Shown: one piece after another, positions 1-36,567 of the stretch
Position numbering within the stretch: the stretch's first letter is position 1
Layout of the letters: each line of letters opens with the position of its first letter
Virus record (IMG/VR): IMGVR_UViG_3300020044_004474
Span: 1 to 38,003 of that record
Strand: one strand, 5' to 3'
Length of the DNA: 38,003 nucleotides
From: a virus
Lineage: Duplodnaviria; Caudoviricetes
Position numbers and translations under genes: made by a program
The notes under the pieces: model-generated
What the model was told of the DNA's origin: nothing
The model's database searches: none
The model's input: only the letters and a program-made list of their open reading frames with translations

Positions 1-1
1 A

Positions 2-151
2 GGATACCGCTACGCCGACAGCGAGGATGCTGCCGTGGGATCATTCCTGCGGAAGTCTCTCACCGACAACGAAGGATTCACCGCTGGACAAGTCCTCGTG
101 ATCCCAATTCCTCTGCCGAACAGCCAAGCACAGCCGCCGCAGGTCGGCTGA
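2..151 (+). CDS. Partial ORF (5' end outside window), probable cassette cargo; ends ...LPNSQAQPPQVG
   Basis: Frame open from position 2 to TGA 149-151; reads in frame through AAC 119-121 into the short attC-like site. Confidence 0.6.
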   Translation, partial: GYRYADSEDAAVGSFLRKSLTDNEGFTAGQVLVIPIPLPNSQAQPPQVG

Positions 152-166
152 TGATACCTGTTTTAA
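115..166 (-). repeat. Short attC-like site S1
   Basis: + strand GCCGAAC-AGCCAA-GCACAGC-CG-loop-CG-GCTGATGA-TACCT-GTTTTAA; near-identical to S2, S3 and S5. Confidence 0.88.
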
Positions 167-192
167 AATTTAACAACCAACCAGAACGAACA

Positions 193-681
193 ATGAACGA
201 ATGTAACGACCCAGACCACGGTGCGATAAATGCCGAAAGATCTGAATCAAGAGGCTTGCGTAAAGCGTGGATAGAACTTGACGATAAAAGGCAACAACTT
301 GAAAGCGAACTAACCGCAGTCACTGAGCAGCGCGATGGATTACGATCAGGCATTGATTATGCAAGCGATCAGCTACACAAAGTCACCGAGCAGCGCGACA
401 GGCTGCAAAAGATCGTTGATGAGCAATGCCGAGTGTCGTCAGTATGCCGCGAATACCGAGAGCAGCGCGACAGGCTGGCGGAGGTATTGCGAAATATTAT
501 GGCTTATCGAAAAGGTGAAAAACCCCATGACTATTGGAGATTACCTTTTGAAGAACGAGAGAACGCAGCTTTTGACGCATGGATTCAAATTGAAAATAGT
601 ATAAATCAAGCACTCCAATCCCTAACCACGAACGCAATAGCGCAGACACCGCCGGATTCCGGCACGAAAAATCATGGATAA
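193..681 (+). CDS. Hypothetical coiled-coil protein with three (T/R)EQRD repeats; paralog of 1273-1611
   Basis: ATG after CAGAACGAAC leader; ELTAVTEQRD motif and QSLTxN ending shared with 1273-1611. Confidence 0.75.
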   Translation: MNECNDPDHGAINAERSESRGLRKAWIELDDKRQQLESELTAVTEQRDGLRSGIDYASDQLHKVTEQRDRLQKIVDEQCRVSSVCREYREQRDRLAEVLRNIMAYRKGEKPHDYWRLPFEERENAAFDAWIQIENSINQALQSLTTNAIAQTPPDSGTKNHG

Positions 682-758
682 ACCACAAGACCCCGAGGCG
701 GCGGAAACCGTCCAAACCAAGGAAATCCCGGCGGTTGATCTGCCGCGACTTGTTGTGC
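627..758 (-). repeat. Long attC-like site L1
   Basis: AAC-GCAATA-GCGCAGA-CACCGCCGG ... CCGGCGGTTGA-TCTG(C)CGC-GACTT-GTTGTGC. Confidence 0.88.
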
Positions 759-987
759 TTCTTCCGTGTCCGTTTTGCGGCGCGAATGGAGCCTATCCCG
801 AGGACATGGAACCCATCGGGGAGCTCTACTGCCAATGTTCCGACGATAAATGCAGGACGTTCGGGCCGAGCGGAAAAACGTGGATGGAAGCAGGGCAAAG
901 GTGGAATCTCCGCACTCGGTGCGACTTCTGCCTGGAAACTCCACTTACACCCACCGAACGGGAGCACGCGCTTTCCATTCTGCACAA
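633..987. mobile_element. Integron-like gene cassette C1 (Lar-like cargo)
   Basis: GTTGTGC (752-758) is the exact reverse complement of GCACAAC (982-988). Confidence 0.85.
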
Positions 988-1018
988 CAGCCAAGCACAG
1001 CCGCCGCAGGTCGGCTGA
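674..1018 (+). CDS. Lar-family (restriction alleviation)-like zinc-ribbon protein
   Basis: LLPCPFCG...CxC...C...G...A...WN pattern; start codon inside L1 loop, stop inside S2. Confidence 0.65.
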   Translation: MDKPQDPEAAETVQTKEIPAVDLPRLVVLLPCPFCGANGAYPEDMEPIGELYCQCSDDKCRTFGPSGKTWMEAGQRWNLRTRCDFCLETPLTPTEREHALSILHNSQAQPPQVG

Positions 1019-1033
1019 TGCTACCTGTTCTAA
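982..1033 (-). repeat. Short attC-like site S2
   Basis: GCACAAC-AGCCAA-GCACAGC...GCTG(A)TGC-TACCT-GTTCTAA. Confidence 0.9.
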
Positions 1034-1060
1034 AATTAAATTTAACAACCCGAACGAACT

Positions 1061-1276
1061 ATGAACAAACCAACCACGAAAAAAGAATGGGCAGCATACC
1101 GCGCGCAATTGACCTGCATTATAGGCAAAAAAGAAATATCTCACGCGGTAGATAATAGGTTATGTCTAGAAAAAACAACCATAACATCTTTATATCATTT
1201 GCTAAATGCCGTCCACGATCTTGCGTTATTAGCATTTGATCCAAACGACATAACAACCAAGCAGAACGAACCATGA
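1061..1276 (+). CDS. Hypothetical protein
   Basis: ATG after GAACGAACT leader; ATGA overlap with next gene. Confidence 0.7.
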   Translation: MNKPTTKKEWAAYRAQLTCIIGKKEISHAVDNRLCLEKTTITSLYHLLNAVHDLALLAFDPNDITTKQNEP

Positions 1277-1611
1277 AAACAGACACACCGAGAACAGATG
1301 ATTCAGAAACCAGAGTAAGAAAAAATGGTTTTTCCCCACTCATCGAATACTGCTATGCGAACGACATGGCTAAACTTGAACGCGAGCTCACCGCCGTCAC
1401 CGAGCAGCGCGACAGGCTGGCTGAGGCTTTGGAACACTCCATGAAGCACATGAGGCATAGTCTCAACTGTCCCGCTAAAATCACGGAAGGACTCCATCCA
1501 TGTAATTGCCAGATGGAGTGGGCGTATGACAATGCAACCGAAGCCATCCAATCCCTAACCCCGAACGATAGGGCTATGACGCCCGCAACTGAATCAGACC
1601 ATGGAAAGTAA
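1273..1611 (+). CDS. Hypothetical phage protein (DTPRTD start, ELTAVTEQRD coiled coil, Cys/His cluster)
   Basis: ORF track; paralog of 193-681; stop inside L2. Confidence 0.75.
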   Translation: MKTDTPRTDDSETRVRKNGFSPLIEYCYANDMAKLERELTAVTEQRDRLAEALEHSMKHMRHSLNCPAKITEGLHPCNCQMEWAYDNATEAIQSLTPNDRAMTPATESDHGK

Positions 1612-1653
1612 CAGTAAGGCTATTGAGGGTCGGTCATCAGCCCCTTGTTCTGG
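1560..1653 (-). repeat. Long attC-like site L2
   Basis: AAC-GATAGG-GCTATGA-C ... G-TCAT(C)AGC-CCCTT-GTTCTGG. Confidence 0.85.
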
Positions 1654-1935
1654 ATTCTTCATCGTGAACGACTTTGATAGGCCTGACGAGGAACGAATCG
1701 CCCAGCAACGCGCCGATGGAAAGTTCTACTATATTCATCCGACGCTCCGAAAGGTAAAACGATATTGGGGCATGACGCCGGAAAATCCAACGCCGCTTGA
1801 ATCGTTTGGAATCTCCATTGCTCTGATCGGCGGCGAGTTCCGGGGATGTCATAACAACGAATCGACGGCGACCTATCGCGACGGCAGACCTCGCCGATGG
1901 CAGGGTGAAGGGTTGTTCTCATTCTCTTTCCAGAA
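1566..1935. mobile_element. Integron-like gene cassette C2
   Basis: GTTCTGG (1647-1653) matches CCAGAAC (1930-1936). Confidence 0.85.
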
Positions 1936-1966
1936 CACCAATGGGGATGCACCCGCACACGAATAA
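1601..1966 (+). CDS. Hypothetical cassette protein
   Basis: Start in L2 loop, stop in L3 loop. Confidence 0.65.
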   Translation: MESNSKAIEGRSSAPCSGFFIVNDFDRPDEERIAQQRADGKFYYIHPTLRKVKRYWGMTPENPTPLESFGISIALIGGEFRGCHNNESTATYRDGRPRRWQGEGLFSFSFQNTNGDAPAHE

Positions 1967-2045
1967 ACTTTATGGAAACCAACACAAACACACCCGAAGC
2001 CAAACAGCCTGCTAGTGCGGGTTGTCATCCCACGACTTGTTCGGC
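1930..2045 (-). repeat. Long attC-like site L3
   Basis: AAC-ACCAAT-GGGGATG-CACCCGCAC ... GTGCGGGTTGT-CATCCCAC-GACTT-GTTCGGC. Confidence 0.85.
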
Positions 2046-2300
2046 TGACGAGGCGCACCGCCACCTCTATCACCCGTGGTGGAGCGTGAAGGAAATGGAA
2101 GCCATTGCCACGCTCGCGCACCGCCATCACATGAATCCCGTGGAACTCATCCGCGATGCCGTGGGCGGGTGGGATCAGGCCTGGCAGATACGCCATTCGG
2201 CACGATACATCCTCGAAGATGCGAACCCCGAAAAGCTGGCCGAAGCCTGCGGACTCCAGCTCGGAGTCATCACCGCCGCGCTGAAAACCATTCTGCCGAA
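1936..2300. mobile_element. Integron-like gene cassette C3
   Basis: GTTCGGC (2039-2045) matches GCCGAAC (2295-2301). Confidence 0.85.
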
Positions 2301-2343
2301 CGCCGAGTCCATCCACCCCCACCATAACCACGAAAGACCATGA
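1972..2343 (+). CDS. Hypothetical cassette protein (possibly DNA-binding)
   Basis: Start in L3 loop, stop in L4 loop; helical composition. Confidence 0.65.
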   Translation: METNTNTPEAKQPASAGCHPTTCSADEAHRHLYHPWWSVKEMEAIATLAHRHHMNPVELIRDAVGGWDQAWQIRHSARYILEDANPEKLAEACGLQLGVITAALKTILPNAESIHPHHNHERP

Positions 2344-2424
2344 TAAACGATACCACTACACCGAAGAAATCCAACGCCACCAAACAAGAGGCTGGTGGGG
2401 GTTGGATGAGACGCCTTGTTCGTC
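2295..2424 (-). repeat. Long attC-like site L4
   Basis: AAC-GCCGA-GTCCATC-CACCCCCACC ... GGTGGGGGTTG-GATG(A)GAC-GCCTT-GTTCGTC. Confidence 0.85.
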
Positions 2425-2725
2425 CTCTTTTGTCCGCTACGTCAATAGCCGCGCTCATGTGGTGCGCATGGTTGGCGGTCAATGGCAGCGAAGGAGCTGG
2501 GAGGATACTCCAATTCGCCGCATGGTTCATGGCCATTACCATCGTCGGCGCGGTATGGCCGAAGGAGTTCGAGGATCAACGATCAAAAGGGATGCCGCTC
2601 CCGAGGTGGATTCACTTCGGAACGGGGATCGCGCTTATTTTGTTCTTGGTCTGGCACGGCTGGATATGGACGGCGATTGCCCTTGTCCTGCACGAAATCG
2701 GGACGGCTTCAATTCATCGGACGAA
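2301..2725. mobile_element. Integron-like gene cassette C4 (membrane protein cargo)
   Basis: GTTCGTC (2418-2424) matches GACGAAC (2720-2726). Confidence 0.85.
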
Positions 2726-2756
2726 CAGCCAAGCACAGCCGCCAAAGGTCGGCTGA
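2340..2756 (+). CDS. Hypothetical multi-pass membrane protein
   Basis: 3-4 hydrophobic segments; start in L4 loop (ATGA overlap), stop in S3. Confidence 0.7.
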   Translation: MINDTTTPKKSNATKQEAGGGWMRRLVRPLLSATSIAALMWCAWLAVNGSEGAGRILQFAAWFMAITIVGAVWPKEFEDQRSKGMPLPRWIHFGTGIALILFLVWHGWIWTAIALVLHEIGTASIHRTNSQAQPPKVG

Positions 2757-2771
2757 TGCTACCTGTTTTAA
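2720..2771 (-). repeat. Short attC-like site S3
   Basis: GACGAAC-AGCCAAGCACAGCCGCCAAAGGTCGGCTGATGCTACCT-GTTTTAA. Confidence 0.9.
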
Positions 2772-2798
2772 AATTAAATAACCAACCAGCGAGAAGAT

Positions 2799-3017
2799 AT
2801 GAACCCTCTATTCATTTACACTAAAAGCGGAGACGTAAAGTGCCTTGGTCTTAATGATCGTGAAACCCATCAATTTCTTTTAGATTCAGGATGGATGCTT
2901 TCATCTTCAATCGAATCGGGCGCATGGATCGAGCACCTAATAAAGAATCGCGCAAAGGCACAAAAACTTATTGATGAACTAATCAGAAACAATCACCCAA
3001 AACAAACAAACAAATGA
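2799..3017 (+). CDS. Hypothetical protein
   Basis: ORF track; ATGA overlap with next gene. Confidence 0.65.
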   Translation: MNPLFIYTKSGDVKCLGLNDRETHQFLLDSGWMLSSSIESGAWIEHLIKNRAKAQKLIDELIRNNHPKQTNK

Positions 3018-3604
3018 ATACACAACCAAGCACAACGAAAATGCAAACACTAGAATCCAACTATCGCCAACTCGCCAGAATTGATTTCCCAGAATACAAG
3101 GGGAGACAAATCTACATGCACTCATTCAACACTGGACGGCCTAATATGCCAGAAGGATTTGAGGACTATTTGGAACCCGTCATGAGACTGGTATCCAGTG
3201 CGGGGCTAGGCGCGATTGATGTTCACGTCACCATAGATGAAAAGGTGGTTAGTCCAGGAATGGCTCAACGCCGACCTGGACCCCATGTGGATGGTTGCTT
3301 TACGGGCAGCGCGTGGGGACACGGAGGTGGAGGCGGAAGATGGAATCACAACTGCAACGAAATCCCCGCGCTGAAACGTATGTCGATCATCGTGGCAGCA
3401 TCTGTCTCAGGATGCAAAGCATGGGCTGGAACTTTCTTCGGAGACCCGCAAAATGACGGAGATTGCTCACACATCGTTAGCGGAGAGGGGGAGGTGCTAC
3501 CTGCGAACGTAGGGTATTTACTAAGTCCTGACTGCATCCATGAGTCAATGGTATTCACTGAGACTACGCAGCGTCAATTCCTGCGGATCGCCTTTGCAGT
3601 ATAA
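3014..3604 (+). CDS. Putative 2OG-Fe(II) oxygenase-like (cupin fold) protein
   Basis: HxD motif (GPHVDG), distal His (CIHES), C-terminal RxFxR; alternative start at 3041. Confidence 0.6.
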   Translation: MNTQPSTTKMQTLESNYRQLARIDFPEYKGRQIYMHSFNTGRPNMPEGFEDYLEPVMRLVSSAGLGAIDVHVTIDEKVVSPGMAQRRPGPHVDGCFTGSAWGHGGGGGRWNHNCNEIPALKRMSIIVAASVSGCKAWAGTFFGDPQNDGDCSHIVSGEGEVLPANVGYLLSPDCIHESMVFTETTQRQFLRIAFAV

Positions 3605-3618
3605 ACAAACACAAAACT

Positions 3619-3822
3619 ATGAACACACAACCAAGCACAACAAAAAAGATAGAAGCATGGCTAAGCCGTGGCTACAAACTAACGCCCCTGCAAGCCCTAG
3701 AAAAGTGGGGCTGTATGCGGCTAGGTGCAAGAATCTACGAACTCCGAAAGGGAGGGATGGATATTCGCACCATGCCGATCACTCGCAACGGAAAAACCTT
3801 CGCCCAATACCAAGCAGTATGA
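3619..3822 (+). CDS. Small winged helix-turn-helix protein
   Basis: LTPLQA...GCMRLGARIYELR...A.Y pattern typical of small phage wHTH proteins. Confidence 0.75.
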   Translation: MNTQPSTTKKIEAWLSRGYKLTPLQALEKWGCMRLGARIYELRKGGMDIRTMPITRNGKTFAQYQAV

Positions 3823-10882: not shown

Positions 10883-11299
10883 TTATGGGGTGATTGCAAA
10901 TGGATCGAGGATGGTCAAACCAAACACGATCTCACCACCAGTAATGCTTGCAACAGTTCCGCCAAGAGTAGCGATAATGTTGACAGCAGATGTGGTGTTG
11001 TTTACATAACCAGGCTCAGTATCGACTAGCGATCCCGTATTGTAAGCCGTTGCGACCAGAGCATCAAGGTCAGTTGATGCAATAAGTCCAGCAGCAGTTC
11101 CGGTAACGCCAAGTGTCAGAGTAATGTCAGAAGCACCTGCGATGGCACTGATAACAGTTACAGAGGCATTGGTGACGATACCACCGCGAGGAACTACACC
11201 GATTGTCTTTGCGGCTGTGCCAGCAGCAACAAGGTCAGTGGCAGTCATGCGGAAGTAGTGGGTATACCCACGCGATTCATTATTAGCTAATTGAGGCAT
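10883..11299 (-). CDS. Putative capsid decoration/cement protein
   Basis: 138 aa, Ala/Thr/Val/Gly-rich, immediately after MCP. Confidence 0.55.
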   Translation of the reverse strand: MPQLANNESRGYTHYFRMTATDLVAAGTAAKTIGVVPRGGIVTNASVTVISAIAGASDITLTLGVTGTAAGLIASTDLDALVATAYNTGSLVDTEPGYVNNTTSAVNIIATLGGTVASITGGEIVFGLTILDPFAITP

Positions 11300-11326
11300 A
11301 ATTTTATTTCTTTCTTTTTGTCGGGT

Positions 11327-12322
11327 TTAGTAAGCGATTTTACCATGTGCTTGCGGATGTTTGACACACAGAGTTCCTGCAACGTCAATGAATCCACGCT
11401 CACCACCACCTTGGTTCTCAAGACGAGTAGCACCCATAGGGATAAGGGTGTGAAAGCCCAGATACTTAGGATTGAGGACGTAGCCTACGTTGGTTGAACC
11501 AGTTGGCATACAGCTAGGGTTACCGTTCACGATCTTCACAAGACCGAAGTCGGAGTCATACAGGTTCACCGAAAGGGTGATCTGCTTGCTCGTAGCGTCT
11601 TGGTTGACGTGGTAGGTAACACCAGCGGATGAAGGCTGGGCGCGGGTGAAGTTGCTGATAAGCTGACGAAGTGCCACGTTAGCAACAAGGGTCAAACTGT
11701 TCATCTCACCGTTCTTAGCGAAGATCGAACCGATCATCGTGTTGAACGAGGACTCGCTAAGGGTCGATGCGATGATCGAGCCAGAAGGAGTGCGATAAGC
11801 AGTAGGAACTGGGTTGGTTGCTTGAGCGGTGGACTGAATCCACTTGCCAAGACCGCGCATTCCGTAAGGAGTGTCAGCACCGTTTTCAACCGTCATCTCG
11901 TTGTTGGAGGCGATGGTTGCTTCGATGTCGCGTTTGATCTCACGCATGGATTTAGCTTCTGCTTGTGCCACGTTTGCAGGGCCAACACTGGTGACGGCTT
12001 GCTGAAGGTTGGACACAATGTAGTCACGGCGCATGAGTTGGATGTAGTTTCCAAGACGGGCGCGATCTGCGAACTTGTCGGAGAACGAGGTAACGTCGGA
12101 ACCTTCGCTGATACCCGTGGTAGAGGGAGCGGCGAGGGAATCAACAGTCCACTCGGTGTAGGTGGCGGATGCTTTACCCTTGCCGCAAAGCGAAAGGATA
12201 GGAGTCTCTTCTGGAGCGAGGATGGAAAGCTCGTTGCTGAGATCCTCACGGTTAGAGACAGCGGAACCCTGACCGACTTTTGCGGCTGGGGCTGATGGCT
12301 GATAAGTATTTGAGATAGGCAT
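11327..12322 (-). CDS. Major capsid protein (SU10/DUF5309-like)
   Basis: NREDLS..L....PEETP, EW..D.L, EG.D, N..Q, E.KRD.E, Y.SDFG, P.AHG motifs. Confidence 0.88.
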   Translation of the reverse strand: MPISNTYQPSAPAAKVGQGSAVSNREDLSNELSILAPEETPILSLCGKGKASATYTEWTVDSLAAPSTTGISEGSDVTSFSDKFADRARLGNYIQLMRRDYIVSNLQQAVTSVGPANVAQAEAKSMREIKRDIEATIASNNEMTVENGADTPYGMRGLGKWIQSTAQATNPVPTAYRTPSGSIIASTLSESSFNTMIGSIFAKNGEMNSLTLVANVALRQLISNFTRAQPSSAGVTYHVNQDATSKQITLSVNLYDSDFGLVKIVNGNPSCMPTGSTNVGYVLNPKYLGFHTLIPMGATRLENQGGGERGFIDVAGTLCVKHPQAHGKIAY

Positions 12323-14035: not shown

Positions 14036-14278
14036 ATGGAACACGAAAATAAAATGGAAAAAGGGAAGGTGTATTTAGTAACGCTAAAATCTGGAGTCGT
14101 CTTTTTGGGATTGGTGATGACCATGCTCTCGCTGATCCTTCCTTGGTTCTGGGTGAAGTTGGCACTATTATTTGCATCGTTAGTTCTGGCGGTTGTCTGC
14201 TTACTGACTCTGATCCGGCGGTTCTTAAATTCTTCAACGAACGTCCAAGCTCATACACCCGCCACCAATGAACTCTGA
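14036..14278 (+). CDS. Small two-TM membrane protein, antisense to late arm
   Basis: Two hydrophobic segments; reads in frame through AAC 14240-14242 and stops in L5. Confidence 0.65.
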   Translation: MEHENKMEKGKVYLVTLKSGVVFLGLVMTMLSLILPWFWVKLALLFASLVLAVVCLLTLIRRFLNSSTNVQAHTPATNEL

Positions 14279-14325
14279 ACCAAATAAAGACGCTCCGGCG
14301 GGTTGTATGAAGCGACTTGTTCATC
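14236..14325 (-). repeat. Long attC-like site L5
   Basis: AAC-GTCCAA-GCTCATA-CACCCGCC ... GGCGGGTTG-TATG(A)AGC-GACTT-GTTCATC. Confidence 0.88.
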
Positions 14326-14555
14326 CTCTTCCCGAATAACCATGGAAATCAAACACACAATCAGCGCCGCAGAATACCAACGGTTGAAAGATCACAGCGC
14401 GATGCTGGGCCGGATCGCTGGAGTCGTGAGCCGATACGCCCACACGCCAGAGACGACAACCTACGAATGCGTCGTGGCACTCAATGAACGGGTCCGCACG
14501 CTCAATGCGAAGGTCCGCAATCACAAAAACGCCGGGGGCAAATTCCTCGGATGAA
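14242..14555. mobile_element. Integron-like gene cassette C5
   Basis: GTTCATC (14319-14325) matches GATGAAC (14550-14556). Confidence 0.85.
14342..14554 (+). CDS. Hypothetical cassette protein (preceded by 23-aa leader ORF 14268-14339)
   Basis: ATG 14342; stop TGA lies within GATGAAC. Confidence 0.65.
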   Translation: MEIKHTISAAEYQRLKDHSAMLGRIAGVVSRYAHTPETTTYECVVALNERVRTLNAKVRNHKNAGGKFLG

Positions 14556-14602
14556 CAGCCAAGATCACTGACGCTTGCGTTCAGTGTATCGACCTGTTCA
14601 AA
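14550..14602 (-). repeat. Short attC-like site S4 (divergent family member)
   Basis: AAC-AGCCAA-GATCACT-GACGCTTGCGTTC-AGTG(T)ATC-GACCT-GTTCAAA. Confidence 0.85.
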
Positions 14603-30331: not shown

Positions 30332-30447
30332 GTACTTACCAAGGGAATTGGTTGGCAAAGCACCTAGCAAAAGCAAAGCAAAGGTTGCCGCTTGTTGGGG
30401 ATTATTTATGGGAATAGTGAATAGGTTTCCAGACTATATATCACTAA

Positions 30448-30492
30448 CCTTATCCTTATATCCTTATATCCTTATATCCTTATCCTTATATC
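30448..30492. repeat. Tandem repeat, six CCTTAT(AT) units
   Basis: Read directly from sequence. Confidence 0.9.
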
Positions 30493-30788
30493 TCTATCTT
30501 TAGCCATTGCTCTTGTGCTTTGCTCTTGTCGTACCACTTGACCTTGGTTTACAGCTCGCTTGGTTGCCGGATTTGATAAGATCCTTAAAATATTTTCCAC
30601 TTATTTGTCTAGCAGATAATCGCTGAAATCGCTTGTGGTTGCTAGGGTTTGCGGCTTGGCAAGCTAAAAATGAATATTTATTTTAACTATTTAGACAAAA
30701 AGATGTGGACAAACTACAAACACTTGGTAAGTTGCTCGTGTCGCCAGTGACGGCAACGATAAAACAAAACAAACAAAACAAAAGACAA

Positions 30789-32064: not shown

Positions 32065-32136
32065 AACGCCTCTGTGGAGGCACGCACCAAACCGCTATGA
32101 ATACACCAAACAACTTCGAGGCGTTGCCTCTCACGA
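32065..32136 (-). repeat. Degenerate attC-like site (right core box lost)
   Basis: AAC-GCCTCT-GTGGAGG-CACGC ... GCGTTG-CCTC(T)CAC-GA, with no CTTGTT following. Confidence 0.65.
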
Positions 32137-33395: not shown

Positions 33396-33983
33396 ATGAA
33401 CCTAGAACATAGCACACCAGAACTATTCACCGCCCTTGCCAAAATGCAGGGAGAGGTCGAAAACGCCACCAAAGGGAGTATAAACCCTCACTTCAAGAGC
33501 AAATACGCAGACTTGGCAGAGGTATTAAACACCGTTCGCCCAGTCCTCGCTTCAAACGGTCTATCCGTTATTCAGTCCCCGTCCTTCGATGGGGGAATCT
33601 GCCATGTCACCACTACAATCGCCCATGCCGGCGGAGGATACATCTCTGGCACCATGTCATGCGTCCCTGCCAAGATGGACGGGCAAGGCATCGGAGCAGC
33701 CACAACCTACCTTCGCCGTTACAGCCTAGCAGCCGTCTGTGGAGTCGCCCAAGAGGATGACGATGGAAACACCGCAGCGCATACCAAGCCTGTCAGCTAC
33801 CCTCTTATCTCGAATCTGGAGGCAACTCGAATTAAGGACAGCATCGAGTCGCTCAACATCGACGAATCCGCTTTCCTCCGCCATTATGGAGTCAAATCAG
33901 TCGGGCAACTGACCACCGACAAAATCCCTGCCATCGATAAGGCATTTATCGCTAAAAACAAATCCAACACCACCACCGCATGA
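33396..33983 (+). CDS. erf: ERF-family single-strand annealing protein
   Basis: NPHFKSKYADL, Q..G.A.TY.RRY.L, EDDDG motifs. Confidence 0.9.
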   Translation: MNLEHSTPELFTALAKMQGEVENATKGSINPHFKSKYADLAEVLNTVRPVLASNGLSVIQSPSFDGGICHVTTTIAHAGGGYISGTMSCVPAKMDGQGIGAATTYLRRYSLAAVCGVAQEDDDGNTAAHTKPVSYPLISNLEATRIKDSIESLNIDESAFLRHYGVKSVGQLTTDKIPAIDKAFIAKNKSNTTTA

Positions 33984-34120
33984 AAAGAACAACACGCACA
34001 TCATTCCAAACCCCGACCCGCAGCATAGGACGTGACGCAGCCATCACGGTTGCGCTCATGCTCGCACTTGGGAAGCCTAAAATCACCATGCTTCAGAAAA
34101 TCAAACGACTGTTTAAGTGA
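33980..34120 (+). CDS. 46-aa hypothetical protein (not in ORF track), ends IKRLFK
   Basis: ATGA and GTGA overlaps with flanking genes. Confidence 0.5.
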   Translation: MKRTTRTSFQTPTRSIGRDAAITVALMLALGKPKITMLQKIKRLFK

Positions 34121-34926
34121 TAACCAACGCACAAATAGAATACAATCTAGGGAAGGCTTACTACCTTCGCACCGCAAGCCCAAAGAATCTCAATGGGCCT
34201 GTCTCCAAATCCCTGCTTTGGGATTTCAACGATTCACCTTACAAGTGGAGACATTCCACCGGCAGGGAAGTGACCCGTGCAATGGATCTGGGAACGCTGA
34301 TTCACTCAGCAATCCTAGAGCCGAACATCCCGCTGACTGACATCGCAGCCGTATCACCATTCGCTGACTTCCGCACCAAGGCAGCCCAGGAATGGAAAGC
34401 TGACCAACGCGAGATGGGTAAAATGATCGCCACCGATGAGGACATTCGCGCGGCTTCTGGTTGCGAGTTGGTCTTTTCCGAGGATTACGCCCAACGATTC
34501 GCAGGTGGATATAAAACCGAGGTTGCCGTTTTCGGCATGATCGGAGCCACCGAAATCAAAGGCATGATTGACCTCGTTCCTGACAACCTAGATGTGCTTG
34601 TGGATCTCAAGACCACGGCAAAAATCGGGAGCTTGTTTGACATTGCGAGAACGATCATTTCCCGTGGTTATCACTGGCAAGCCGCCCTCTACTTGGATCT
34701 GTGGAACGCAGCCACTGGAGAGAAACGCACTCGGTTCGTCATTTGCTTCATCGAGGTAAGTGAGCCGCATGAGCCAGCATGGGTGGAGGTATCCCCAGAG
34801 CTTATCGAGGTTGGACGCGCTGGCTACATGAATGCCCTCGCTAAATGGCAATCGTGCGTTGCAATTGACGCATGGCCTCGCCAGCATGAAGGTATCACAA
34901 TGATCGAGAAACCTGCTTATCTGTAA
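34117..34926 (+). CDS. PD-(D/E)XK exonuclease, RecE/DUF3799-like
   Basis: S.S.L, GT..H..ILEP, KG..D, DLKTT, YHWQAA.Y motifs. Confidence 0.85.
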   Translation: MITNAQIEYNLGKAYYLRTASPKNLNGPVSKSLLWDFNDSPYKWRHSTGREVTRAMDLGTLIHSAILEPNIPLTDIAAVSPFADFRTKAAQEWKADQREMGKMIATDEDIRAASGCELVFSEDYAQRFAGGYKTEVAVFGMIGATEIKGMIDLVPDNLDVLVDLKTTAKIGSLFDIARTIISRGYHWQAALYLDLWNAATGEKRTRFVICFIEVSEPHEPAWVEVSPELIEVGRAGYMNALAKWQSCVAIDAWPRQHEGITMIEKPAYL

Positions 34927-34973
34927 ATTGATGGGGGGAGCGCATCCTACACGCTCACTAACTAAATAAAAAA

Positions 34974-35279
34974 ATGAGTGAGAAAATAGACGTAAAAGGA
35001 ACAGTCGAAACAATTCTTGAAATCCAAGAGTTTGCTTCGGGATTTAAGAAACAAACCCTAGTCATCGATACGGGTGGCAAATTTCCCCAGAAGGTCGCCA
35101 TCGACTTTGCAAAGGAAAAGATCGAACTGATCGCAAACCTTGTGAAAGGACAAGAGGTTACAGTCGGAGTCAACATCCGTGGTAATGAATATAATGGGAA
35201 ATACTATGTATCCCTTGCCGGTTGGAAGGTCGATGCTGGAGCCGTGCCCGAGGATCAAGATGACGATATTCCCTTCTGA
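34974..35279 (+). CDS. DUF3127-family SSB-like protein
   Basis: F.K..LVI...FPQ...NIRG.E.NG.YY..L..W; acidic DDIPF tail. Confidence 0.85.
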   Translation: MSEKIDVKGTVETILEIQEFASGFKKQTLVIDTGGKFPQKVAIDFAKEKIELIANLVKGQEVTVGVNIRGNEYNGKYYVSLAGWKVDAGAVPEDQDDDIPF

Positions 35280-35358
35280 TGTAACAACCGAGCCGCGACG
35301 GTAAAAATCCCCACGCCCTGGGAATCGCAGCAGGGCAAATTTTCAACTAATAAACACA

Positions 35359-35466
35359 ATGAGACTAGCACTAACATTAACCACATTAGCCGCATTTGTA
35401 ATTGGTGCGGTGTTGACCAGAAAGAACGACCAAGGTGAGGCACAGCCTCCCGCAACAAAACTATGA
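35359..35466 (+). CDS. 35-aa hydrophobic peptide (not in ORF track) reading into L6
   Basis: MRLALTLTTLAAFVIGAVLTRKNDQGEAQPPATKL; AAC in frame; ATGA overlap with 35463. Confidence 0.55.
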   Translation: MRLALTLTTLAAFVIGAVLTRKNDQGEAQPPATKL

Positions 35467-35518
35467 ATACATTCAAAGACTCAACGGGAGGCTGTTGTCC
35501 TCCGCCGCCTTGTTCGCC
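35421..35518 (-). repeat. Long attC-like site L6
   Basis: AAC-GACCAA-GGTGAGG-CACAGCCTCCCG ... CGGGAGGCTGTTGT-CCTC(C)GCC-GCCTT-GTTCGCC. Confidence 0.88.
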
Positions 35519-35701
35519 TTGGAACCGTGGCGACAAGCCCCCAACGCTCCCGCTTACCGTCATTGGCGTGGTGGGTAGCAAGCCTGTCCTCGTCTGGTAT
35601 CACTCACGGACACGCTGCTGGCATGACAATCCCGCTGCATTCGGAAGCGTCCCCGTGGAATGGTGGCAATACCTTCCAGACTGCGAATTGTTGAAGGCGA
35701 A
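35427..35701. mobile_element. Integron-like gene cassette C6
   Basis: GTTCGCC (35512-35518) matches GGCGAAC (35696-35702). Confidence 0.85.
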
Positions 35702-35732
35702 CAGCCAAGCACAGCCGCCAAAGGTCGGCTGA
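35463..35732 (+). CDS. Cassette protein, DUF551-like
   Basis: W....KPP...V...W......V.WW..LP pattern. Confidence 0.55.
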   Translation: MNTFKDSTGGCCPPPPCSPWNRGDKPPTLPLTVIGVVGSKPVLVWYHSRTRCWHDNPAAFGSVPVEWWQYLPDCELLKANSQAQPPKVG

Positions 35733-35747
35733 TGCTACCTGTTCTAA
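35696..35747 (-). repeat. Short attC-like site S5
   Basis: Identical to S3 between AAC and GTT. Confidence 0.9.
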
Positions 35748-35773
35748 AATTAAACAACCAACCAGAACGAACT

Positions 35774-35959
35774 ATGAAAACAGAAGAACAACAACGCAAA
35801 GAGTTTGAGGAATGGGCTTTAGATAAAGGCTATATGATGAAGCGATGTAAATATGAAAATACCTCCTATATGTCTATTGCGACTGATGGGGTATGGCAAG
35901 CTTGGCAAGCCGCGCAGGACTCCGCCTCAAAAACAAACAATCCGGCTGTATCCGGTTAG
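35774..35959 (+). CDS. Hypothetical protein (RKEFEEW...WQAWQAA), C-terminus from an attC arm
   Basis: Similar to the N-terminus of 36202-36567. Confidence 0.65.
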   Translation: MKTEEQQRKEFEEWALDKGYMMKRCKYENTSYMSIATDGVWQAWQAAQDSASKTNNPAVSG

Positions 35960-36176
35960 GTCTCACGACTTGTTAGCCTCTTTGAATTATGAGAACGCCC
36001 CACATGGAAAATAAATCGGAAATCATAGCAGACATGCAACGCGCCAGAGCGCGAATGCTTGAATATACACAGGGATCGGAACAGTGGTGGGTTGCCTACT
36101 ACGATCTACGCCGCGCCGAATCACGTCTCGGCTAACGTCAATGTGAACCTGCCGGATACAGCCGCGCAGGACTCCG
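35908..36176. mobile_element. Circularly permuted cassette C7 with split attC and 17-bp direct repeats
   Basis: Right arm 35943-35978 precedes its complementary left arm 36130-36164; AGCCGCGCAGGACTCCG at 35908 and 36160. Confidence 0.75.
35989..36135 (+). CDS. 48-aa cassette protein (not in ORF track)
   Basis: ATG 35989 to TAA within GGCTAAC. Confidence 0.6.
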   Translation: MRTPHMENKSEIIADMQRARARMLEYTQGSEQWWVAYYDLRRAESRLG

Positions 36177-36201
36177 AATCACCAACTAAGCAGAACGAAC
36201 T

Positions 36202-36567
36202 ATGAATGAAGAACAAAACCGCAAAGAGTTTGAGGAAAGATTTAGTCACTTTGACCTAAGCAGAAATCCACTCAACGGAATATATCTTGATTACGGTTCC
36301 GAAGGGGCTTGGAAGGGATGGCAAGCTGCGAGGGAGCGGCAGTGGATGCCGATTGAGACTGCGCCGAAAGATGGGACTCAAATACTATCTTTTGCTGAGT
36401 GGGAGGGCATTACTGTTTGTTCATGGTTGGAATGCTCTGAAATTTGGGAGGAAAAAAATAAATATGGATGGGCTAAATATTACGACACTATTCAAATGTC
36501 ATACGAAACCTTTGAGCCAACCCACTGGATGCCATTACCTAACACACCAACCATCGAGAAGATATGA
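36202..36567 (+). CDS. DUF551-like phage protein
   Basis: WMPIETAPKDGT...PTHWMPLP. Confidence 0.8.
   Translation: MNEEQNRKEFEERFSHFDLSRNPLNGIYLDYGSEGAWKGWQAARERQWMPIETAPKDGTQILSFAEWEGITVCSWLECSEIWEEKNKYGWAKYYDTIQMSYETFEPTHWMPLPNTPTIEKI

Follow-up and report, generated by a model that had tools for sequence, protein, structure and literature searches.

Phage attC clusters and related systems

CALINs, groups of attC sites that have no integron integrase with them, are defined as two or more clustered attC sites with no integron integrase nearby (Cury et al. 2016, bioRxiv 10.1101/030866, in its accessible text). The text of PMC9892861 (Qi et al. 2023) reports 17 CALINs in 10,705 phage genomes; these few published cases were read as captured bacterial arrays, and IntI1 recombined five of the six phage sites tested, including sites of the Pseudoalteromonas phage PH101/H101. 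The present analysis concerns arrays of attC-type hairpins in the virus record IMGVR_UViG_3300020044_004474 (Duplodnaviria; Caudoviricetes), all 38,003 bases of which were analysed and are referred to below as the window; the record is estimated to be 100% complete and is classed as linear. Four arrays and a truncated fifth are present in these 38 kb, and what they form is a genuine attC-based system of mobile cassettes. Phage CALINs as such are already published.

PH101 resembles the window in having attC clusters, no integrase and a bottom strand that is the coding strand; when its sequence was checked here (L392, KR534323 75958-77985), the sites tested with IntI1 were found to be inverted relative to the annotated genes. 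It differs from the window in that the three sites inspected have short loops without a start codon. The Tetrasphaera phage TJE1 also contains an attC cluster without an integrase, but its layout is canonical, the coding strand being the top strand. The text of PMC9892861 contains no remark on inversion, reading frame, short terminal sites or variation between relatives, although its figures or Dryad files may show the inversion.

Integron attC sites, as described in the accessible text of PMC5027507 and PMC5371416, share with the window sites the AAC and GTT cores, the extrahelical bases in the L boxes, the unpaired spacer, the variable loop and the complementary ends; there is also a likeness in motif to the chromosomal attC sites of Verrucomicrobiota. 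The window sites differ from integron attC in lacking a G-rich, more stable bottom strand and in their shorter terminal sites, while the cassettes differ from those of integrons in having a bottom-strand gene that starts in its own attC, with no intI and no evident attI or Pc. IntI is also described as inserting at secondary genome sites (attG, 5'-GWT-3'; bioRxiv 10.1101/2022.09.11.507474, in its accessible text). The first cassettes of the window arrays are comparable, since each lies at an AAC without a hairpin (GTT when read on the opposite strand), close to gene ends for which site-free alleles exist. The text of that preprint describes no strand bias in E. coli, whereas the window targets are coding-strand AAC triplets at gene ends, mostly in frame. 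A literature search over titles and the openings of abstracts, with subscription journals mostly outside its reach, turned up no paper on inverted, in-frame phage cassette arrays.

Promoter early stem-loop (PeSL) cassettes and boundary sequences of T4-type phages provide a further comparison; they represent a repeat-mediated modular shuffling that relies on homology between near-identical repeats. The window resembles PeSL-type shuffling in having repeated intergenic elements with expression signals around variable small genes, and differs from it in that its long sites are dissimilar in sequence, share a common fold and exchange at one base.

Hairpin arrays of the attC type

Seven attC-type hairpins near the start of the record, and 11 intact ones in the whole genome, had been described in an earlier note made from the sequence; both counts were borne out, and lie far above those obtained with shuffled sequences. 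The cluster of seven, at 119-2767, sits in the + strand early region. Under a strict rule (AAC, a spacer of 5-6 nt, a box of 7 nt, a loop, an 8-nt box containing one extra base, a further 5 nt and GTT, with 7/7 pairs), eight calls were obtained on the + strand, against a mean of 0.21 and a maximum of 2 in 100 block shuffles. Within 101-2800 there were five strict calls (shuffle mean 0.011, maximum 1 in 1000), and a relaxed rule gave seven in this interval (shuffle mean 0.53, maximum 5). The - strand gave two strict calls, one being the mirror of 1934-2041. The geometry described in the note, in which the extrahelical base of the L boxes proves to lie on the arm opposite the coding-strand AAC, holds strictly for eight of the 11 sites, while the other three show a single deviation (119 and 35425 pair at 6/7 positions; 1934 has the extra base in another register).

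The AAC and GTT cores pair in the folded strand in all 11 sites and are invariant in 16/16 aligned short sites; the central spacer of 5-6 nt is unpaired and the terminal structure is variable. Cores included, the long sites measure 90-132 nt and the short ones 52-53 nt, the attC range used for comparison being 56-141 bp. A search against Rfam gave no match at E<=1. With seven sites in 2.7 kb (at least two clustered attC) and no integron integrase nearby, the window falls within the CALIN definition. No intI gene, the mark of a complete integron, was found in the PF00589 searches, nor does the window follow the canonical cassette layout, in which a top-strand open reading frame (ORF) has its own attC behind it: its cassette ORFs lie on the bottom strand, with their own site in front. 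The arrays and the resident genes that adjoin the first two are the following.

119-162, - strand (canonical top strand): short site, 44 nt from AAC to GTT; predicted crossover at + strand AA|C 120/121
193-681, + strand: resident gene of 162 aa without a family; an insertion point lies at its 3' end, CCCTAACCACGAA|C
631-754, - strand: long site of cassette 1, 124 nt; contains the stop codon of 193-681 and an ATG at 674
633-987, + strand: cassette 1, ends GTTGTGC/GCACAAC; ORF 674-1018, Lar-like restriction alleviation protein
986-1029, - strand: short site closing array 1; other contigs start at 986
1061-1276 and 1273-1611, + strand: two resident genes, the second ending in CCCTAACCCCGAA|C, the insertion point of array 2
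1564-1649, - strand: long site of cassette 2, 86 nt; ATG at 1601
1566-1935, + strand: cassette 2, ends GTTCTGG/CCAGAAC; ORF 1601-1966, no family
1934-2041, - strand: long site of cassette 3, 108 nt; ATG at 1972; encodes a 24-residue head
1936-2300, + strand: cassette 3, ends GTTCGGC/GCCGAAC; ORF 1972-2343, no family
2299-2420, - strand: long site of cassette 4, 122 nt; ATG at 2340 overlapping the upstream TGA
2301-2725, + strand: cassette 4, ends GTTCGTC/GACGAAC; ORF 2340-2756, membrane-like, no family
2724-2767, - strand: closing short site of array 2; behind it come an A-rich leader and then a resident gene
14240-14598, - strand: third array, with long site 14240-14321 and short-type site 14554-14598
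14242-14555, + strand: third-array cassette, ends GTTCATC/GATGAAC; ORF 14342-14554
35425-35743, - strand: fourth array, with long site 35425-35514 and short site 35700-35743
35427-35701, + strand: fourth-array cassette, ends GTTCGCC/GGCGAAC; ORF 35463-35732

The cassette upstream of site 119-162 is cut off by the start of the contig. The Lar-like ORF 674-1018 matched phrog_599 at E=1.2e-6 and PF14354 with 28.2 bits, slightly below the cut-off of 28.6. The third array forms a + strand island amid - strand genes and is absent from the close relative G348, and the insertion point of the fourth is the end of ORF 35359-35466.

The 7-bp inverted matches that the note had reported at cassette ends are exact (7/7) in all six intervals behind long sites; the further pair that it listed, GTTAGCC/GGCTAAC, belongs to a split site and not to an intact array. 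Core ends inside one and the same site match each other in 0/11 window sites and in only 4/114 cases among relatives. The two intervals behind short sites (162-631 and 1029-1564) have unmatched ends, and their contents are resident genes. Among adjacent site pairs of relatives in which the upstream site is long, 35/49 have 4/4 complementary ends (permuted mean 3.4, maximum 10 of 5000), some of the unmatched pairs being due to intervening sites missed by the detector.

Orientation of the sites and codons inside the hairpins

The inverted layout, the codon-bearing hairpins, the short closing sites and the exchange of cores on the GTT side go beyond the earlier note. As read from their sequence, the arrays are inverted with respect to the genes, the coding strand having the predicted geometry of the recombinogenic (bottom) strand, in mirror image to host arrays. 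Along the + strand, AAC is followed by 6 nt, a 7-nt box, the loop, an 8-nt box, another 5 nt and GTT. Bottom-strand geometry is assigned to the coding strand because the extrahelical base lies opposite the coding-strand AAC; according to the accessible text of PMC5027507, extrahelical bases lie opposite AAC on the recombinogenic bottom strand.

Site orientation follows the genes and not the contig: the array at 14240 is on the + strand among - strand genes, and a phage contig of the same architecture, binned in a metagenome-assembled genome (MAG), has sites on both strands, each set with its genes. In nine phage genomes, 52/57 site calls fell on the strand richer in A, which was taken to stand for the coding one; the five exceptions are the mirror call of 1934-2041 and four with a skew of -0.01 to -0.13. 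Genes lie on the bottom strand in the window, the MAG phage contig and PH101, and on the top strand in TJE1 and in the host arrays beside intI. The latter served as a control, the arrays adjoining intI in a Verrucomicrobia family carrying their ORFs on the top strand (about eight sites, judged by eye). A stop-free frame spans the body in 69/76 cassettes on the coding strand versus 35/76 on the other. The idea that relics of top-strand genes persist in these bodies was rejected on this ground and because ATG near the core shows no excess on the top strand (29/76, against a mean of 23 and a maximum of 34). Contig G001:C89 (L159) carries at 11054-12039 a 312-aa gene in the same inverted cassette type, bodies thus reaching about 0.9 kb; judged by eye, its product looks like a PAPS-reductase-family protein.

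In five of the six long sites of the window the loop contains the ATG of the cassette's own gene, at a position between 10 nt ahead of the upstream gene's stop codon and 6 nt past it. That upstream gene reads AAC as Asn and stops within the hairpin at 10/11 sites, and at the eleventh it stops on the core. Among relatives, AAC is in frame in 77/110 distinct upstream flanks and 14 more stop at the core, the background being 760/2280 (about 33%) for other AAC triplets; an in-frame stop lies inside the site in 101/114 sites, versus 64 and 37 for the other two frames. The GTT side has no single frame (counts of 25, 11 and 3 for the 39/76 bodies that start in their site), as is expected if hairpin and gene usually travel together. 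With a crossover at coding-strand AA|C, a cassette would consist of a hairpin followed by its gene.

Variation among relatives at AA|C

The proposal in the note that these genes are exchanged as mobile cassettes is supported, since its own test, presence or absence at AA|C in relatives, was run and passed. Between relative L010 and 35200-35428 the identity is 97%, and the two part one base past AAAGAAC; in L010 three other cassettes follow there, and then a short site, while L053 and L307 are site-free at this position. At the gene end CAATCCCTAACC[AC]CGAA|C, 47 distinct alleles were found, 35 of which are site-free and run into a leader and ATG. The other 12 comprise six strict sites, two relaxed ones, two with a right arm recognized by eye, one remnant and one unrelated sequence. 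Three different cassettes stand behind TGAATACTAA|C in L066, L069 and L073. In L014, the same target gene end carries a related Lar cassette, and an extra cassette is present between it and the short site. Cassette 4 was found as a discrete unit in another run, one contig from this independent run covering 2299-2727 with 1 difference and continuing into other sequence. In a selection of 32 contig pieces from independent runs, at least 13 start or end <=3 nt from the AAC of a site (239 more pieces stand outside this selection). The joint 1561>2722, which would place the target gene straight onto the short site, was not counted, the sequence between the pieces being indeterminable.

The distribution of sites is patchy. 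Among 79 exonuclease-anchored loci, 13 gave + strand calls. G348 has an array elsewhere and none at 14240; its counterpart of that locus (L371, 6230-6430) shows no hairpin and holds a different small gene with a direct repeat of about 23 bp. In a scan of genome contigs whose pattern proved too loose, one of the 119 loci listed formed the hairpin. A DNA search of the INPHARED phages returned no relative, and among sequencing runs searched for the words of the region the best value was 0.16, none reaching half.

Short terminal sites

All five window arrays end on their + side in a site of 44-45 nt, as do those of many relatives; across phages the short terminal sites measure 43-49 nt. On the top strand their position is that of attI. 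In an alignment of 16 short sites, 98.4% of cells are paired and 8/9 stem pairs show two-sided changes, with 26-41% paired in slid controls; this alignment was chosen by hand, and related sequences inflate the contrasts with shuffles. The short-site pattern was present in 1/301 Verrucomicrobiota genomes, the single match being the MAG phage contig, so that the short site is not a common host repeat in the genomes searched. From its position and from the extra cassette in L014, we infer that the short site is the cassette entry point.

Core exchange and possible cassette creation

A search with ORF 1972-2343 returned 61 proteins, 27 of which carry the hairpin-encoded 24-residue head on bodies with no pairwise BLASTP match to each other at E<1e-3. 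The body of this ORF in turn is found behind other heads, the one encoded by site 1564 among them, and in front of other tails. Five homologous cassette pairs were found among 80 cassettes compared by DNA: three kept their own core, four differ in the next site and all five in the previous flank. A further 19 cassette pairs have the same core over unrelated bodies. One core swap was located at a 7-letter shared stretch, and the swapping of cores at GTT explains much of what this section describes.

Among the proteins with this head, the residues before a C-terminal Asn were compatible with complementarity to the bases past GTT in 22 of the 26 testable cases (permuted mean 10.4, maximum 18 of 5000). 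Past four variable bases, a TCTT motif is present in 40/76 bodies versus about one expected by chance, and the sequence just past these four bases often stays family-like. Both cassette ends are T-rich on the coding strand (about 0.5 versus 0.18 inside, 76 bodies); this feature and TCTT may mark either the ends of host-type cassettes or the process by which cassettes are created. It is conceivable, if rather doubtful, that these phages run a cassette pool of their own, in which new cassettes are being made now in mirror orientation and the four bases are rewritten by copying. Were this so, the process that gives rise to integron cassettes would act on phage genes and could be traced in natural populations. 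Since one hairpin has been joined independently to many unrelated genes, these cases offer natural material for studying how cassettes arise.

Decayed and permuted sites

Two further elements of the window carry altered sites.

32065-32134, - strand: decayed site with both boxes kept and the GTT end lost; intact relatives in G349 and G354
35908-36176, + strand: permuted cassette, with right arm 35925-35978, ORF 35989-36135 and left arm 36130-36176

In the permuted cassette the right arm lies upstream and the left arm downstream of the gene, both being of one site type, and a 17-bp direct repeat (35908-35924 and 36160-36176) brackets the whole. Five other contigs carry this site type in intact form, and the bodies that go with it there are of four kinds. 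When the permuted arms were rejoined a full hairpin was obtained, 90/103 columns of which match the site in L058 (the join omitted 3 nt, which makes this count slightly low). The arrangement would fit an integrated circle, or a double crossover from a tandem pair such as that in L058; its use as proof of a circle was downgraded, since two sites of one type stand in tandem in L058 and a double crossover would lead to the same arrangement.

An A-rich leader is repeated at 172-195, 1040-1063, 1252-1275, 35753-35776 and 36181-36204, ending in GAACGAAC(T/C/A)ATG before resident genes, and it also acts as an AAC target. In L008 and L036 this leader is joined to the loop of a half site; judging by such junctions, it may derive from attC loops.

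Recombinase genes and candidate host

The statement in the note that no tyrosine recombinase is visible holds for the window, and the same was found in 10 related array-bearing records. The PF00589 profile gave no match at E<=1 over the whole window, no tyrosine-type recombinase appeared in the PHROG scan (65 proteins) or the Pfam scan (50 proteins), and PF00589 had no match in the 10 array-bearing relatives, five of which are at least 90% complete. When a shared phage-encoded recombinase was sought, no reading frame of the window was common to more than four of eight other array-bearing genomes, and no protein to all nine genomes compared.

The phage contig mentioned above, 59 kb long and of like architecture, was binned with the MAG of an uncultured member of the Verrucomicrobia, and this MAG encodes an IntI (376.7 bits; TIGR02249 cut-off 265). 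IntI above this cut-off is present in 15/45 genomes of the family of this MAG, and a model built from the phage short sites alone finds host attC beside intI with E values of 1e-4 to 4e-4, under a rough calibration. The long-site pattern gave 0 matches in the MAG. The link to a Verrucomicrobiota host is weak.

Proposed mechanism and alternative explanations

We propose that small accessory genes are kept as integron-type cassettes with attC hairpins inverted relative to the genes. As the note had suggested, the cassettes are probably moved by a host IntI acting in trans, a reading drawn from sequence comparison, and this integrase would excise and insert them at coding-strand AA|C, the coding strand presumably being the one cut. 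The first cassette may enter at an ordinary AAC near a gene end, used as a secondary site, and later ones beside the short site, which would stand in for attI. Whatever the order of the cassettes, translational coupling along the operon would be preserved by the fixed Asn frame and the start codon in the loop. The enzyme would be the IntI of a host that probably belongs to Verrucomicrobiota. Short-homology recombination is likely at work as a second and slower process, in which cores are swapped on the GTT side and sites are worn down.

Several observations weigh against this interpretation. The exchange of cores on the GTT side (two of the five homologous pairs, the 19 same-core pairs and one contiguous contig) is unexplained by bottom-strand IntI recombination. 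The short sites, at about 52 nt with cores, fall under the quoted attC minimum of 56-57 nt. Canonical bottom strands tend to be G-rich and more stable; in the window the coding strand has the lower energy in 3/11 sites, and is C-rich in 10/11. The phage has an ERF and an exonuclease of its own, and in G348 a gene flanked by repeats of about 23 bp occupies the locus of a window array. The host link consists of a single binned 59-kb phage contig with no visible host genes, and DNA-level searching of 401 Verrucomicrobiota genomes returned nothing. Cassette movement is read here from the comparison of sequences.

Part of this evidence bears on a different explanation, in which no site-specific enzyme acts today. 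The phage encodes a homologous recombination module, as follows.

33396-35279, + strand: ERF-like annealing protein, exonuclease VIII and single-stranded DNA-binding protein (PHROG scan)

ERF and exonuclease VIII could shuffle genes by short homology between hairpins or leaders, with selection for frame mimicking site specificity. Such a route would account for the 17-bp direct repeat around the permuted cassette and the direct repeats around the G348 gene, for the half sites fused to leaders in L008 and L036, for the tandem same-type sites of L058, and for core swaps at a 7-letter shared stretch. However, alleles split one base past AAC between hairpins that have no homology, and homology gives no reason for the 4/4 complementary ends (35/49), the conserved extra base or the compensatory changes in the stems; most relatives that carry the exonuclease are, moreover, site-free (+ strand calls in 13/79 loci). 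We consider this explanation unlikely.

Movement might instead be site-specific and due to a recombinase other than a classical IntI, either a host Xer-like enzyme or one from a co-infecting element. The thermodynamic strand bias, unlike that of canonical attC, and the exchange at both cassette ends would agree with this. The phage sites nonetheless resemble the attC beside true intI genes in the candidate host family, and the similarly oriented sites of PH101 work with IntI1 (text of PMC9892861), which makes another recombinase quite unlikely. The view that the hairpins are immobile relics of host cassettes, retained as mRNA structures that couple the translation of neighbours, accommodates the start and stop codons in the loops, the commonness of decayed and half sites, and the T-rich motifs kept at both cassette ends, unlike the gene body, yet it is very improbable, since homologous pairs differ in the previous flank in 5/5 cases and in the next site in 4/5, one cassette is 1 letter from that of the window yet has other sequence behind it, and end complementarity hundreds of bases apart would be useless to an mRNA hairpin.

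Under the proposed movement of cassettes by a host IntI, phage-type genes lie in cassettes that are translatable in any order and vary between relatives with single-base precision. This points to phages using a host integron enzyme as their own gene-shuffling tool, and would provide a path by which genes pass between the cassette pools of phage and host. For annotation, it matters that such proteins have their first 20-30 and last 10-20 residues encoded by hairpins, and that these residues can be swapped.

Other features of the window

The PHROG scan also identified a terminase, a major head protein, a DnaC-like loader and a RuvC-like resolvase. Promoter and terminator scans of 1-3100 gave results near chance, with two promoters found versus 2.7 expected. 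Short non-coding tandem repeats resembling TCCTTATA are present at 30445-30497, between divergent gene blocks, and are possibly an origin or packaging region. Finally, a 43-nt direct repeat (2999-3041 and 3604-3646) lies on either side of the gene 3014-3604; in relative L002 the first copy of this repeat leads directly into the next gene, which suggests an indel bounded by repeats, without attC.

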